Below, in pieces: positions 51,575-56,637 of a DNA stretch of 64,000 nt; within the stretch, counting starts at the first letter, position 1, and the number at the start of each line of letters is the position of its first letter. The translations under genes and the position numbers were made by a program. Source of the stretch: Candidatus Latescibacterota bacterium (GTDB lineage: Bacteria; Latescibacterota; UBA2968; UBA8231); NCBI GenBank assembly GCA_965203175.1, contig OZ241867.1:5216001-5280000 (forward strand). Direction: 5' to 3'. The notes under the pieces were generated by a model. That model ran no database searches, was not told the DNA's origin, and was given only the letters and a program-made list of their open reading frames with translations.

Positions 51575-54043
51575 TCACGCCTTCATCTTCTTGCCTTCCG
51601 GGTCGTACAAAGGCTCTTGCTCAACTGTTGCTTGCAGACGCTCGCCAAAGTAGAGGATGTCAACGCTGGTCCCCACTTCAGTGTAGTTCATCGGCAGATA
51701 ACCATACGCAATGCCAAGGCCGATCGAGTGGCCGTAGTTGGCGCTCGTCACGTAGCCCAACACGCAGTCACCGTCCAAGATTAGCTCCTTGCCCATAACG
51801 ACGGCGTTAGGATCGTCCAGCGTCATACAGCACAGCTTGCGCGTCAGTCCTTGGGCGAGAATTTTCCGCAACGCGTCCCGGCCCAAGAAATCGCCCTTCC
51901 CCATCCTCACCGCGAAACCTATACCAGCCTCGTAAGGATTGTACTCAGTGTGGATGTCATTCCCCCACAGTCGGTAGCCTTTTTCCAAGCGCAGCGAATC
52001 GAAGGCACCTCCACCTGCTGCAACGACTCCGAACGGCTGACCCGCCTCCCACAGAACATCCCACAACCGCAAGCCCTGCTCGGCGGGCGCGTAGATCTCC
52101 CAGCCGAGTTCACCCACGTATGAGATTCGCAGCGCCAGTGCGGAAACCTCGGCTATCCGTATAGGCTTTCCGGTCAAGTAAGGAAAACCCTCGTTGCTCA
52201 CATCGTCCTCACAGACCCGGCTTAACAAGTCGCGCGCGCTTGGCCCCCATAAACCTATACAGCACAGCCCCGACGAAATGTCAGCTACCCCAACCGATCC
52301 GTCGTCCGCTAGCTGCTTCTGAATCCAGCCCAGATCGTGGTGTCCCATAGCTCCACCCGTGACCACCATAAAGCGCTTCTCACCCAGCCGCGTCACGGTC
52401 AGGTCGCACTTAATTCCGCCCCGAGGTGTGAGCATAGACGTGTATGTGATAGTCCCGACGGGCTTGTCCATCTGATTGGTCGCAAGGCGCTGGAGCGCAG
52501 CGAGCGATTCTTCTCCAGTCACCTCGAACTTGGCAAAGGGAGTAAGGTCGAACAGGGCTACTCGCTTGCGAGTGGCGACGTGTTCCGCTGCAATCGTCGG
52601 CGACCATTCTCGCGCCTCCCAGCCAGTTCGCGCTGCGCCGGTAACCGTGAGGGAGTCGAGCAGGCTCTCGTTTGCGGCGTACCACTGGGGACGCTCCCAT
52701 CCCGCGTTCTCAAAGAAGACGGCACCCAATTCCCGCTGTCGCGTATAGAACGGCGTCAGGCGGAGGTTGCGCGGGTTGGCTATCTGCTGGCGCGGGTGGA
52801 TGATGTCGTACACCTCGCGGTACTGTTGTGCAGCTCGGGCGCGGACGTAGGAGCGGCTGTACGCGTGCGGATGAAAGCGCCTTATGTCGCACTCCCGCAG
52901 ATCGCTGGTCGGCTCGCCATTTGCAATCCACTCAGCAACCGCCTTGCCAACGCCTCCAGCGTGTGTAATCCAGACGGCCTGCGCCGACCAAAAACCGCGC
53001 ACCTGGGGCGATTCGCCGAGTACGGGAAACCCATCGGTGGTAAAAGAAAAGAGGCCGTTGAACTTGCGCGTCAATCCCACGCCTTTGAGGCTCGGCAGCA
53101 CCTCTCCCGCCGCGGCCATCGCCTTCTCAAAGTGAGGCGGCGTAAACGGCATCTCGGCCGGAGCAACCGGCGCTTCCTCGTGGTCGAGAATGTCATTGGC
53201 ATCCACTAAAAGAGGTTCATGCTGATACGAGCCAATGCCGTAGCACTCGCCGACCTGCCGGAAGTACATAGCCTCGTCTTGGTGCCGCAAGAACGGCTGC
53301 GATATATCCTCAGCCGCACCAGCGAGTTCCCGCAGTGGCGTCGTAACTGCGTAGAGATGTTGCATCGGCGACAGCGGGATGGGCACGTCGGCAAGCCCGC
53401 CAACCTTTGGAGCCCAGATGCCGGTAGCAGCGACTACCAGGTCCGTCTGGATGTCGCCGCACGTAGTATGGACCGCCTTAATTCGTCCGTCCGCAATAGC
53501 AAAGCCAGTAACCTTGACGTTACTGTAAAACGTGGCACCATTCCGTTCTGCCTCTCGCGCCATCGCTTCAGCCGGCCTCGTCGCCTTCGTCTGGATGTCG
53601 GAAGGAACGTACAGCGCACCCAAAATGCGATCGGACAGCATTGGAATCCGGCTGCGAGCCTCGTCGGCGCTGAGGAGGTGGGCCTCCACGCCCCAACTCA
53701 TGCCATACCCGGCCTTGCGTTTCAGATCGGTGAGGCGCTCCTGCGTCCAAGCCACTTCAAGGCTGCCCACGCTCTTGGCGCACGGCTCGCCATCAAGTTC
53801 CAACTGGCTCCACAGGTCAACCGTATAGCGCGCGAAACCCGTCATGGTCTTCGACGGGTTGAGCTGAAAAACGAGGCCCGGGGCGTGCGAGGTCGAGCCG
53901 CCAGTCTCAAACAGCGGCCCTTGCTCGACGACGACGACATCCCGCCAGCCGAGTTTCGTCAGATGGTATGCGACGCTGCAACCTACGATGCCTGCGCCAA
54001 TGATGACGCCCTTAGCTTGCTGCGGCACTGTGGTATCAGACAT
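51575..54043 (-). CDS. Dimethylglycine oxidase/dehydrogenase (FAD + GcvT domains)
   Basis: IIGAGIVG, GGSTSHAPGLVFQ (covalent-FAD His), LRHQD, AVWITH, GWERP, SYVGELGWEIY, SLRLEKGYR; 822 aa. Confidence 0.88.
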   Translation of the reverse strand: MSDTTVPQQAKGVIIGAGIVGCSVAYHLTKLGWRDVVVVEQGPLFETGGSTSHAPGLVFQLNPSKTMTGFARYTVDLWSQLELDGEPCAKSVGSLEVAWTQERLTDLKRKAGYGMSWGVEAHLLSADEARSRIPMLSDRILGALYVPSDIQTKATRPAEAMAREAERNGATFYSNVKVTGFAIADGRIKAVHTTCGDIQTDLVVAATGIWAPKVGGLADVPIPLSPMQHLYAVTTPLRELAGAAEDISQPFLRHQDEAMYFRQVGECYGIGSYQHEPLLVDANDILDHEEAPVAPAEMPFTPPHFEKAMAAAGEVLPSLKGVGLTRKFNGLFSFTTDGFPVLGESPQVRGFWSAQAVWITHAGGVGKAVAEWIANGEPTSDLRECDIRRFHPHAYSRSYVRARAAQQYREVYDIIHPRQQIANPRNLRLTPFYTRQRELGAVFFENAGWERPQWYAANESLLDSLTVTGAARTGWEAREWSPTIAAEHVATRKRVALFDLTPFAKFEVTGEESLAALQRLATNQMDKPVGTITYTSMLTPRGGIKCDLTVTRLGEKRFMVVTGGAMGHHDLGWIQKQLADDGSVGVADISSGLCCIGLWGPSARDLLSRVCEDDVSNEGFPYLTGKPIRIAEVSALALRISYVGELGWEIYAPAEQGLRLWDVLWEAGQPFGVVAAGGGAFDSLRLEKGYRLWGNDIHTEYNPYEAGIGFAVRMGKGDFLGRDALRKILAQGLTRKLCCMTLDDPNAVVMGKELILDGDCVLGYVTSANYGHSIGLGIAYGYLPMNYTEVGTSVDILYFGERLQATVEQEPLYDPEGKKMKA

Positions 54044-54093: not shown

Positions 54094-55185
54094 TCAGACA
54101 TCCATCGCCGGCGGTCCATCGTAGCCAATGCTCTGCCACCCGGCGACATCACCGCCCCTGAGGCGATAGGGATGCGGATACAGCTTGAGCGTGCGGTCCG
54201 CAAACGGCAGAGATACCCGCTCGTGTCCCCGATGAGCCGAGCGCACTAAGGCGATGGCCACTTCGAGCGAGTGGCGGTAGTCGTCTCCACTGCTATACGG
54301 CTCTGTGCCATCCCGATGGGCGCGCATCAGGCGCTCGATCGTATAGGTGAAGGCGTCGGCCACTGGCTGATCCAAAAAGTCGGGATATACCGGAGAAGCC
54401 GCCGCGCCGGTCCCCTCAATCAGCACGGGCCGTGGACGCGCCAAAAAGACCTGCCCGCACTCGCCAGTGACCGAGATAAAGGTCGGCACGCGACCATCCG
54501 GCTCAGGAGCGACGACCTCGCAGACGATGCCGCCGCTCAGCCCCAAGCGGCCGTACGCAGGCACATCCCCCTCCTCACTAGGAGTGCCTTCCGCCACGTA
54601 CCCCGGCACCGCCGGCAAGGTGTACCCTTCCACCCATTCCACGTCCATCCCAGTGAGGATGCGCAAAGCCGCAATCTGCACGCAACCACCGCCCGACACC
54701 TCAGTCGGCAACCCGCCCGGAATCGCCGCCGCCGTCAGCCGACCAATGTGCCCCTGCCGTACCCACTCGACCACATCGGGCATATACGGCGTCGCCCATC
54801 CAGCCTGAGCGCAGCCGAACAACGTGCCGTGCTCCCGGCAGATGCGGATTATTTCGTCGGCCTCGTGCAGTTCGTGAGAAATCGGCTTCTCGCAGGAAAC
54901 CACCCGCACGCCAGCGCGGGCGCATGCGGTGACACACGGGTAATTCTGGCCCACTGGAACCACTGCGGAGACAATGTCGGGCACTTCGGCCGCGAAAAGA
55001 CCATCGAGATCGTCGTACACCTTCTCCACGCCGTAGCGCTGGGCAATGGCATCCCGCCGCTCTCTAGCGCGATCGACGAGGCCGACAATCTCACAGTTGG
55101 GATGGGCGGCGTACGCGCGCGTATAATAGCGGCCCCACGTGCCGGCCGCACCGACGACGGCCACTCGGTATTGTCCATTAGTCAT
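54094..55185 (-). CDS. Gfo/Idh/MocA family oxidoreductase
   Basis: VAVVGAAGTWG, PDIVS, CEKP. Confidence 0.85.
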   Translation of the reverse strand: MTNGQYRVAVVGAAGTWGRYYTRAYAAHPNCEIVGLVDRARERRDAIAQRYGVEKVYDDLDGLFAAEVPDIVSAVVPVGQNYPCVTACARAGVRVVSCEKPISHELHEADEIIRICREHGTLFGCAQAGWATPYMPDVVEWVRQGHIGRLTAAAIPGGLPTEVSGGGCVQIAALRILTGMDVEWVEGYTLPAVPGYVAEGTPSEEGDVPAYGRLGLSGGIVCEVVAPEPDGRVPTFISVTGECGQVFLARPRPVLIEGTGAAASPVYPDFLDQPVADAFTYTIERLMRAHRDGTEPYSSGDDYRHSLEVAIALVRSAHRGHERVSLPFADRTLKLYPHPYRLRGGDVAGWQSIGYDGPPAMDV

Positions 55186-55199
55186 TGTTAGTCTCCTAA

Positions 55200-55228
55200 T
55201 TGACGAGAATAGAGGTCACAGTTATATT
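55200..55228 (+). promoter_or_regulatory. sigma70 promoter of the tyr leader-tyrS unit
   Basis: TTGACG(55200-55205)-17 nt-TATATT(55223-55228). Confidence 0.75.
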
Positions 55229-55244
55229 TTTGCGCGGAGAATAA

Positions 55245-55310
55245 ATGATGCAGAACCTACGCGCCGAACGCTACTACTACTATTACACCTCGCTTCATAG
55301 ACAGGGGTAA
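55245..55310 (+). CDS. Tyrosine-rich leader peptide MMQNLRAERYYYYYTSLHRQG
   Basis: GGAGA RBS at 55236-55240; ATG ATG; TAC TAC TAC TAT TAC at 55272-55286; TAA at 55308-55310; 79 nt upstream of tyrS. Confidence 0.88.
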   Translation: MMQNLRAERYYYYYTSLHRQG

Positions 55311-55342
55311 TGCGTTCGCTTTATCGTCTCAACCGCGTTTAC

Positions 55343-55370
55343 AAGCCCCTGATTACAGGGGCTTTTTTTT
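55343..55370 (+). terminator. Attenuator terminator (3:4 hairpin) upstream of tyrS
   Basis: AAGCCCCTG-ATTA-CAGGGGC followed by T8; its 5' arm can alternatively pair with CAGGGGT at 55302-55308. Confidence 0.88.
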
Positions 55371-55389
55371 ATGCCCATAAGGAAATGCG

Positions 55390-56637
55390 ATGAACATCAT
55401 ACCCGATCTTGAATTTCGCGGCTTGATCTACCAAGTCACCGACCTCGACGGCCTCGCCGAACGCCTCGCTGCCGGTCCGATCGTGCTCTACAATGGCTTC
55501 GACCCAACCGCCGACAGCCTGACGGTGGGCAACCTCGTGCCGATCCTACTCCTGCGCCGCTTCCAGCTCGCCGGCCACAAGGTCATCGCCTTGGCTGGCG
55601 GCGGCACCGGCCTGATCGGCGACCCAGGCGGCAAGACCGAGGAGCGCCAGCTCAATGCCGCCGACGTCGTGGCCAAGTGGACACAGCAGGTCAAAGCCCA
55701 GCTAGAGCGCTTCCTCGAATTCGACGGCCCCAACCCCGCGATCATGGTCGATAACCACGACTGGCTCGGCCAACTCGCGGCCATCGACTTTATGCGCGAC
55801 GTCGGCAAGCACTTTCCCGTCCCCTACATGCTGGCCAAGGACTCGGTCGCCTCGCGCCTGGAAACGGGCATTTCCTACACCGAGTTCAGCTACATGGCGC
55901 TACAGGCGTACGACTTTTTGGTCCTCAACGAAAAATACGGCTGCGAGCTGCAGACCGGCGGCTCTGACCAGTGGGGCAATATCACCGCCGGCACCGATCT
56001 GATCCGCCGCTCCGCCGGCAGCCGGGCCTTTGGCCTGACTTGCCCGCTAGTAACCAAAGCAGACGGCACCAAGTTCGGCAAGACCGAGGCCGGCACAGTC
56101 TGGCTCGACGCTGTTAAGACCTCGCCTTACCAGTTTTACCAGTTCTGGATCAACGCCGAGGACCAGAAGGTCGTCGCTCTCCTGAAAACGTACACCTTCT
56201 TGGAGCAGGACGCGATCCTCCAGCTCGCCGAGACCGTCCGCGACCAGCCCGAACGGCGCGAGGCCCAGCGCACCCTCGCCGCTGAGGCAACGACCATTGT
56301 GCACGGAGCCGACGCTGCTCGCCGGGCCGAACGCATCTCGCACGCGCTCTTTTACGGGGAATTTCAGGACCTATCCGAGGAGGAAATCCTCGAAGGCTTT
56401 GACGACGTGCCAACGCACGCGATGGGTCAGGAGGAATTAGGACTGGTCGATCTGCTCGTCGCAGCCGGCGTCTCACCCTCCAAGCGCCAAGCCCGCCAAG
56501 ACGTGCAAAACGGCTCGATCTACATCAACGGCGAGCGCTGCACGGACATGGCGCGGAGCATGCGGTGCCAAGAGGGCTTACACGGCAAATACCTAATCGT
56601 GCGCCGTGGCAAGAAGCAGTACACCCTCGTCTGCTAG
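55390..56637 (+). CDS. tyrS: Tyrosine--tRNA ligase
   Basis: YNGFDPTADSL, GGGTGLIGDP, EFSYMALQAYDF, QTGGSDQWGNI, KFGKT, C-terminal S4 domain RRGKK. Confidence 0.97.
   Translation: MNIIPDLEFRGLIYQVTDLDGLAERLAAGPIVLYNGFDPTADSLTVGNLVPILLLRRFQLAGHKVIALAGGGTGLIGDPGGKTEERQLNAADVVAKWTQQVKAQLERFLEFDGPNPAIMVDNHDWLGQLAAIDFMRDVGKHFPVPYMLAKDSVASRLETGISYTEFSYMALQAYDFLVLNEKYGCELQTGGSDQWGNITAGTDLIRRSAGSRAFGLTCPLVTKADGTKFGKTEAGTVWLDAVKTSPYQFYQFWINAEDQKVVALLKTYTFLEQDAILQLAETVRDQPERREAQRTLAAEATTIVHGADAARRAERISHALFYGEFQDLSEEEILEGFDDVPTHAMGQEELGLVDLLVAAGVSPSKRQARQDVQNGSIYINGERCTDMARSMRCQEGLHGKYLIVRRGKKQYTLVC

Follow-up and report, generated by a model that had tools for sequence, protein, structure and literature searches.

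A tyrosine-codon leader and terminator upstream of tyrS in Candidatus Latescibacterota, a probable ribosome-mediated attenuator

Organization of the tyrS upstream region

The window, i.e., the whole 64,000-nucleotide stretch of Candidatus Latescibacterota DNA analyzed here (contig OZ241867.1, positions 5,216,001 to 5,280,000), contains a tyrosine--tRNA ligase gene, tyrS, which is preceded by a short open reading frame (ORF) with a run of Tyr codons and by an intrinsic terminator. A first-pass annotation had read this arrangement as a leader-peptide attenuator that controls tyrS in response to tyrosine. Re-reading of the sequence, a consensus scan, and translation located the promoter-like site, the GGAGA motif, the Tyr-codon ORF, the T8 terminator, and tyrS at exactly the positions it had assigned to them. 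The tyrS gene (55390-56637, 415 codons; on the plus strand, as are all features of the leader described below) scores 394.5 bits against the equivalog model TIGR00234 (cut-off 113.8) and is the sole match above this cut-off in the 6.58-Mb genome, i.e., a single-copy gene.

The promoter-like site TTGACG-17-TATATT (55200-55228) consists of a -35 element (TTGACG, 55200-55205) and a -10 element (TATATT, 55223-55228) separated by a 17-nt spacer, and showed 10 of 12 matches in the consensus scan. It is followed by the Shine-Dalgarno sequence GGAGA (55236-55240), which is conserved in the genus (alignment A1), and by the leader ORF (55245-55310), whose product is MMQNLRAERYYYYYTSLHRQG* and whose stop codon lies at 55308-55310. 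The putative regulatory codons, TAC TAC TAC TAT TAC, encode five Tyr residues and occupy 55272-55286. Folding delimits three further segments: segment 1 (55281-55290), the partner of segment 2 in the minimum-free-energy fold if the ribosome is absent; segment 2 (55302-55316), a G-run across the leader stop codon that forms the 5' strand of the predicted antiterminator in the nascent-transcript fold; and segment 3 (55334-55351), the antiterminator 3' strand, the last 9 nt of which are the 5' arm of the terminator. The intrinsic terminator itself (55343-55370) combines a 9-bp GC-rich stem (AAGCCCCTG/CAGGGGCTT, 55343-55364) with the 4-nt loop ATTA and a run of eight T residues (55363-55370), and the energy of its stem is about -15.5 to -16.1 kcal/mol. 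The leader extends over ~110 nt from its start to the terminator. A Shine-Dalgarno-like sequence for tyrS, AAGGAAA (55379-55385), lies 3' of the terminator, outside the hairpin and hence not sequestered by it.

The Tyr run is exceptional in this genome. Over all six frames of the 6,579,469 bases it represents the only run of at least five Tyr codons, where 0.016 such runs are expected from trinucleotide frequencies; runs of four Tyr codons were found five times, compared to about one expected. The arrangement of leader and terminator is beyond chance.

The first-pass annotation had assigned 21 codons to the leader. While the ORF at 55245-55310 is present, its first ATG is not kept in related genomes: only the second ATG (55248), which is located 7 nt after GGAGA, is conserved in the genus, so a leader of 20 codons is more likely. 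Among 25 distinct leaders of the genus, the distance from ATG to stop is 54, 57, 60, or 63 nt, all multiples of three, and indels in the leader ORF thus keep the frame. The Tyr codons of the genus alternate between TAT (62) and TAC (24). Outside the Tyr codons and the G-run, the sequence of the peptide is poorly conserved. The leader ORF is probably translated, a prediction to which these patterns lend moderate support.

Two other frames of the same region were considered and rejected. A second ORF (55310-55393), running from a TAATG overlap to the first codon of tyrS, has TAG and no ATG in most members of the genus. In the Leu frame of the repeat (CTA x4, TTA), no start codon follows the promoter; the single ORF of this frame (55139-55300) begins with a GTG that is located 5' of the -35 box.

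Conservation of the leader and its linkage to tyrS

The first-pass annotation had proposed a comparison of tyrS upstream regions as a check of its reading. We searched for tyrS in 168 genomes of the phylum and read 300-400 nt upstream of the gene in 113 loci; the close relatives in public records, which bear the labels Candidatus Latescibacterota or Gemmatimonadetes, are metagenome-assembled genomes. The comparison bore the annotation out: of the 68 loci of the window's family, 61 have a short Tyr-containing ORF and a terminator ahead of tyrS, i.e., 29/29 loci of the window's genus and 32 of the 39 loci from 17 other genera. In these family leaders, the intrinsic terminator lies 22-40 nt after the end of the ORF, and 49 of the 61 have a TTGAC-N17-19-TANANT site no more than 90 nt 5' of the leader start.

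Three of the exceptions retain parts of the element. At L116, a contig end cuts the leader and the G-run and terminator are retained; L135 has a homologous leader in which a canonical start codon is absent; and L148 has a Tyr ORF and a hairpin without a T-run. No leader element was found upstream of tyrS at L134, L138, L139, and L149. Likewise, 45 tyrS loci from four other families (f2, f3, f4, and f10) revealed no convincing Tyr leader. Two loci outside the family that had been flagged by the pipeline were rejected, L159 because the flagged ORF is the 3' end of the upstream gene and L182 because its AT-rich ORF is 208 nt away and the hairpin reaches just -9.5 kcal/mol.

In four loci of the genus (L010, L015, L017, and L018), the DNA 5' of the promoter differs and promoter, leader, and tyrS remain together. 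From the -35 element to the T-run, conservation of the leader region is 0.835, compared to 0.779 at four-fold sites of tyrS, and it is the higher of the two values in 218 of 231 pairs. A covariance model (R1) built from 30 leaders matches once in the window's genome and once in each of 28 of 30 genus relatives, every time adjoining the coordinates of tyrS. One additional match, in G024, is weak (E 0.009). The two relatives without a match are a genome that is 58% complete and has no tyrS match, and a genome that has only the 3' half of tyrS. Since R1 matches once per genome beside tyrS, the leader element is a single-copy companion of this gene and not a repeat. The model recovers the element mainly in the window's genus and sporadically elsewhere in the family.

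This linkage bears on the possibility that the short transcript stands alone, as a small RNA or as the message of a small protein that ends at its own terminator, and that tyrS is expressed by constitutive leak-through or from another start without any switch. A weak promoter-like site inside the leader (55298-55327, 9 of 12 consensus matches) would suit such a unit, as would the existence of other promoter-plus-terminator islands in the genome that resemble small RNA genes. The internal site is, however, still 5' of the terminator, and the gap of 19 nt from the T-run to tyrS leaves no room for a promoter. An independent product is also difficult to reconcile with a peptide that is poorly conserved except for the Tyr codons and the G-run, with the occurrence of the element only beside tyrS, and with the pairing of the G-run at the stop codon with the terminator arm. 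We regard a separate transcription unit as very improbable.

The islands in question (L188:330-460, plus strand, and L189:2950-3070, minus strand; G000:C1 near 2679640 and 3636200, where G000 is the window's genome) are AT-rich, and in each a very short transcript lies between a promoter-like site and a strong terminator. Their Tyr-rich short ORFs were rejected as attenuators because the ORF lists show no adjacent downstream gene on the same strand. The islands may be small RNA genes, and their Tyr codons look incidental.

The genes around tyrS differ between lineages. In family f2, tyrS lies downstream of trpC and trpF on the same strand with neither leader nor terminator between them (L026:90-1476, plus strand), and other f2 and f4 loci show the same trpC-trpF-tyrS order by eye; in these sister families a trp cluster apparently ends with tyrS. 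A divergent tRNA-Val(TAC) gene is located 5' of the tyrS leader at L058:425-501, L061:348-424, L079:617-693, and L090:286-362, in each case on the minus strand. This neighbor was found in several other genera of the family and is absent at the window's locus (L001).

Alternative pairings, the proposed switch, and tyrosine specificity

Both pairings that the first-pass annotation had proposed for the region between the Tyr codons and the terminator were found by folding. In the minimum-free-energy fold of the free leader, 55281-55290 pairs with 55303-55312 and the terminator is formed. When the RNA was masked to 14 nt past a Tyr codon and transcribed only to the terminator loop, 55302-55316 paired with 55331-55351. 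In this nascent transcript, the proposed antiterminator helix between 55302-55308 and 55345-55351 is extended by pairing of 55309-55314 with 55334-55339 and reaches -16.3 kcal/mol, equal to the -16.1 kcal/mol of the terminator. The alternative structures are thus thermodynamically feasible.

Simulated ribosome positions in the 61 family leaders gave a consistent picture. We scored the 5' arm of the terminator as sequestered when at least two-thirds of it was paired upstream, and found this in 52/61 leaders with the ribosome at the first Tyr codon, in 46/61 with the ribosome at the last Tyr codon, in only 2/61 with the ribosome at the stop codon, and in 28/61 without a ribosome. The mean paired fraction of the arm was 0.71 for stalled ribosomes and 0.31 for ribosomes at the stop codon, compared to 0.49 for shuffled spacers. 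Without a ribosome, the mean sequestered fraction was 0.31 in the window's genus. The hairpin between segments 1 and 2 is seen in the window and in its genus. As the ribosome-free simulation forms the antiterminator in many other genera, this hairpin is not evident throughout the family.

In all 61 leaders, the best partner strand of the arm begins between 25 nt before and 3 nt after the first base of the stop codon. This partner beats shuffled sequences at p<=0.05 in 28 leaders and at p<=0.01 in 20. Between genera, the partner strand tracks the sequence of the terminator: CAGGGG pairs with CCCCTG in the window's genus, CACCGGGGG with CCCCCGGTG in part of g22, and TCGGGGGCTG with CAGCCCCTGA in g8. 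Because the MAFFT alignment A2 shifts or misaligns the G-runs in g18-g22, we used alignment-free duplex tests. With 31 representatives, leaders paired with their own terminator arms gave a value of -16.16 compared to -14.45 for swapped arms, and none of 5000 permutations reached the own value. The terminator helix is paired in 96.3% of cells across 30 family sequences and shows compensatory changes at 2 of 8 pairs. Of the covariation that the first-pass annotation had suggested looking for in the two competing stems, that of the terminator was thus found, while swap and shuffle tests gave modest support for that of the antiterminator. The terminator is predicted to be functional.

The locus therefore combines the sequence features of an attenuator, namely a short ORF, cognate codons, a terminator, and an antiterminator strand that is covered when the ribosome is at the stop codon. 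We consider it likely to be a ribosome-mediated transcription attenuator of the classical type, which adjusts tyrS to how much charged tRNA-Tyr is available. Transcription would begin just 3' of the TTGACG/TATATT promoter, and a ribosome would load at GGAGA-ATG and read the 20-codon leader as RNA polymerase advances. With ample charged tRNA-Tyr, the ribosome would reach the stop codon (55308-55310) and cover the G-run of segment 2, allowing the terminator (55343-55364 with T8) to form and transcription to end 5' of tyrS. When charged tRNA-Tyr is scarce, the ribosome would stall on the Tyr codons (55272-55286) and cover segment 1, and the free segment 2 would pair with 55334-55351 before the 3' arm of the terminator is made, resulting in read-through into tyrS. 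In a leader without a ribosome, segments 1 and 2 would pair with each other and the terminator would form. The poly-Tyr leader attenuator proposed by the first-pass annotation is supported by the conservation of the element, by the pairing of the G-run with the terminator arm in almost all members, and by the absence of a matching Rfam family (see below).

The composition of the leaders bears on tyrosine specificity. The 61 family leaders contain 1 to 6 Tyr codons, and Tyr is their most enriched residue (14.4% compared to 3.1% in long ORFs, 4.7-fold), although this number is biased since the pipeline picked the ORF with the most Tyr codons. When clusters of three Tyr codons within six were counted without choosing an ORF, they were found in 39/61 loci and in 10 of 15 genera. 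In the proposed attenuator, read-through of the terminator would respond to tyrosine through charged tRNA-Tyr.

Several observations weigh against this reading. An SD-like motif was seen in only 33 of the 61 family leaders, and the variable columns of the ORF are distributed over codon positions 1, 2, and 3 as 12, 14, and 14, i.e., they are not three-periodic, which also fits a leader peptide whose sequence is of little importance. In equilibrium folds of the full-length leader, the terminator persists even when the Tyr region is masked, so that the switch must be decided by co-transcriptional kinetics, as in the trp paradigm. Shuffled spacers already sequester about half of the arm. Reducing the swap test to one leader per genus (n=15) made it marginal, with 241 of 5000 permutations reaching the observed value, and since all members share a GGGG/CCCC core, most of the pairing between G-run and arm is invariant and cannot show covariation. 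With respect to tyrosine, nine of the 61 family leaders contain just one Tyr codon (eight belong to genus g22, one to g20), and these single-Tyr leaders may no longer sense tyrosine. Arg is as frequent in the leaders as Tyr (16.2% compared to 7.1% in the proteome, 2.3-fold). Finally, in the count without a chosen ORF, clusters of Leu were found in 42, of Ile in 34, and of Arg in 28 of the 61 loci; those of Leu and Ile presumably arise when the same TAY repeats are read in a different frame.

The abundance of Arg raises the question of whether the attenuator is Tyr-specific at all or reports general translation speed, or Arg as well as Tyr codons, with the Tyr codons among several sites of slow translation. 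Most genera have an Arg codon next to a Tyr codon, adjacent Arg pairs were found in 51/61 loci, and the nine leaders with a single Tyr keep it in RRYRR-like contexts, all of which speaks for a non-specific sensor. Such a sensor leaves unexplained, however, why the regulated gene is always tyrS. Moreover, Tyr exceeds Arg in its enrichment (with the bias of ORF choice mentioned above), and at least one Tyr codon is present in 61/61 leaders, though the pipeline retained only ORFs containing Tyr. Tyr is encoded by just two AT-rich codons, runs of which are far less expected in a genome with 59% G+C than runs of CGN codons. We therefore consider a non-specific attenuator improbable and retain a tyrosine-responsive one as the preferred interpretation.

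Variant leaders were observed in two genera. In eight tyrS leaders of g22 (L129, L132, L136, L137, L140, L141, L143, and L145), the ATG follows the -10 hexamer by exactly 7 nt and there is no Shine-Dalgarno sequence; L130 and L133 of g21 look alike by eye. Judged by this spacing, the leader peptide in g22 and g21 may be read from a leaderless transcript. The g22 leaders listed, except for L132 and L137, have a single Tyr in an RRYRR-like context. A sensor consisting of one or two Tyr codons among Arg codons would suggest that codon or nascent-peptide context, rather than codon number, sets the sensitivity in g22.

RNA data did not contribute to the interpretation. Seventeen RNA runs (contigs) had small shares of 0.05-0.13, and in the four that were compared at 90% likeness, contigs of related strains cover tyrS. 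Record 23 of X7 spans 55327-55540, i.e., it extends across the terminator, and record 8 of X3 starts at 55366. As such contigs can neither show RNA ends nor exclude DNA carry-over, they support no inference, including any about habitat.

Relation to known systems and other leaders in the genome

Scanned against Rfam, the window region and 17 related loci matched no leader family, which is the exclusion that the first-pass annotation had recommended. The closest values were those of Phe_leader (RF01859, 22 bits, gathering score 55) and Trp_leader (RF00513, 16.4 bits, gathering score 41). A T-box (RF00230) was not matched at 54800-55800 at E<=10, and a search of the whole genome returned none, with limited sensitivity, since the control detected above-cut-off T-boxes in 2 of 14 genomes known to contain them. 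T-boxes were also not detected in five leader-bearing loci of other genera, while 6 of 8 Firmicutes tyrS loci used as a positive comparison exceeded the gathering score.

These searches are relevant to the alternative that a trans-acting factor and not the ribosome sets the switch, either uncharged tRNA-Tyr in a T-box-like manner or TyrRS acting on its own leader. Outside the phylum, the most similar tyrS genes (58-61% identical at the protein level) have T-boxes, with six of eight tested above the Rfam gathering score, and UAC/UAU repeats might conceivably pair with a GUA anticodon. Beyond the missing T-box matches in the window, the genome, and the five loci, the ~110 nt between leader start and terminator are too short for a T-box of 219 positions, and an RNA that is not translated would not account for indels that keep the frame or for the conservation of ATG and stop codon. 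A trans-acting factor in place of the ribosome thus seems extremely improbable.

Ribosome-mediated attenuation by a Tyr-codon leader has several relatives among described systems. Synthetase genes with described or predicted leader-peptide control are pheST, the Streptomyces genes trpS and leuS, and the hisS paralogues of bacilli (PMC11802643, PMC1262725, PMC2965389). In E. coli pheST, a leader ORF with cognate codons (pheM) and a terminator/antiterminator likewise precede the synthetase gene (PMC11802643, PMC1262725). The E. coli leader differs from that of tyrS in that it uses Phe and not Tyr codons, controls another gene in another phylum, and shows no sequence likeness; the pheA leader RF01859 is the only related Rfam model. 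The Streptomyces trpS and leuS leaders and those of the bacilli hisS paralogues are predicted classical attenuators of synthetase genes, occur outside Proteobacteria, and replace the T-box of other lineages (PMC1262725, PMC2965389). Their amino-acid specificities and lineages are different from those of the tyrS leader.

The Firmicutes tyrS T-box (RF00230) shares with the leader described here the gene, the logic (more TyrRS at uncharged tRNA-Tyr), and the terminator-versus-antiterminator output, but its sensor is uncharged tRNA bound to a structured RNA of ~220 nt and not a translating ribosome. In Corynebacterium glutamicum, the leader aroR (Phe-Tyr-Phe) precedes aroF and, according to PMC11802643, also places a Tyr codon in an aromatic context; it reportedly responds, however, to limitation of Phe and not of Tyr and controls a biosynthetic operon (PMC11802643). 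The trpL attenuator of trpE(G), e.g., in Sinorhizobium meliloti, has the same architecture as the tyrS leader but contains Trp codons and controls a biosynthetic gene. For Actinobacteria, PMC1262725 reports no conserved RNA structures at tyrosine genes.

We found no description of a tyrS leader peptide or of any Tyr-sensing leader peptide in the literature, with the limit that the attenuation survey of Lopatovskaya et al. (2010), which covers amino-acid and aminoacyl-tRNA operons, may list one. The novelty implied by the first-pass annotation thus holds for the amino acid and the gene and not for leader-peptide control of synthetase genes as a kind, in which pheST, trpS, leuS, and the hisS paralogues precede it. 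Tyrosine and tyrS appear to be new for leader-peptide attenuation, while the mechanism itself is classic.

A scan of the genome for short ORFs that contain residue runs and are followed by a terminator and a gene returned 56 raw hits, most of them noise, and two clean hits besides tyrS, located at trpE(G) and aspS. The first (G000:C1 ~5895360-5895500, minus strand; L191:2347-2500) is the ORF MKSSPHIRRWWRAWYSPSRERGASIC*, which contains two adjacent Trp codons, is followed by a strong hairpin with T8, and lies directly before the fused anthranilate synthase gene trpE(G) (TIGR01815, 939 bits). This WW leader looks like a classical trp attenuator. The second hit (G000:C1 ~2041820-2042240, minus strand; L190:1920-2340) consists of the tandem Asn-run ORFs MITRQNDRTQNNNPLAPLRVF and MTFRYNHTAYAFANNNDNNPAIRARWRWP before aspS (NF001750, 809 bits). 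A GC-rich hairpin with a T-run follows each Asn leader, and the second ends 27 nt upstream of aspS. An asnS above the cut-off is encoded in the genome as well, so that Asn codons before aspS are puzzling. The use of leader attenuation at several loci of the lineage makes an attenuator at tyrS more credible.

The combined reading would be a lineage-wide Tyr-specific attenuator of tyrS that is the first for both tyrosine and tyrS, includes a leaderless sub-type in g22 and g21, and operates where Firmicutes use T-boxes; that all of its parts hold jointly is rather doubtful. If it is true, the lineage would employ ribosome-mediated attenuation, with Tyr, Trp, and Asn leaders, for synthetase genes where Firmicutes have T-boxes. 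The tyrosine-responsive attenuator that we prefer would already add tyrosine and tyrS to the few amino acids and synthetase genes with ribosome-mediated attenuation, in a phylum known only from metagenomes. Considering that the nearest tyrS genes outside the phylum have a T-box and that sister families have trpC-trpF-tyrS without a leader, tyrS moves between three regulatory arrangements. What makes the leader interesting is that the amino acid and the gene appear to be new, that the phylum is uncultured, and that other genera show variant forms. Annotators gain a defined single-copy element; the practical weight is modest, as this is a textbook mechanism in an uncultured organism.

On the opposite strand upstream of the leader, the neighboring gene (54094-55185) is weakly similar to Gfo/Idh/MocA dehydrogenases. 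The window also contains an 822-aa ORF (51575-54043, minus strand) that comprises an FAD oxidoreductase part and a GcvT-like aminomethyltransferase part and is of the dimethylglycine or sarcosine oxidase/dehydrogenase type, every NCBIfam match being below its curated cut-off. Elsewhere in the genome (G000:C1 ~6227050, plus strand), a terminator with the tyrS-type stem AAGCCCCTG ... CAGGGGCTT and another loop precedes a Gfo/Idh/MocA-like gene, and this stem may be a common terminator form in G000.

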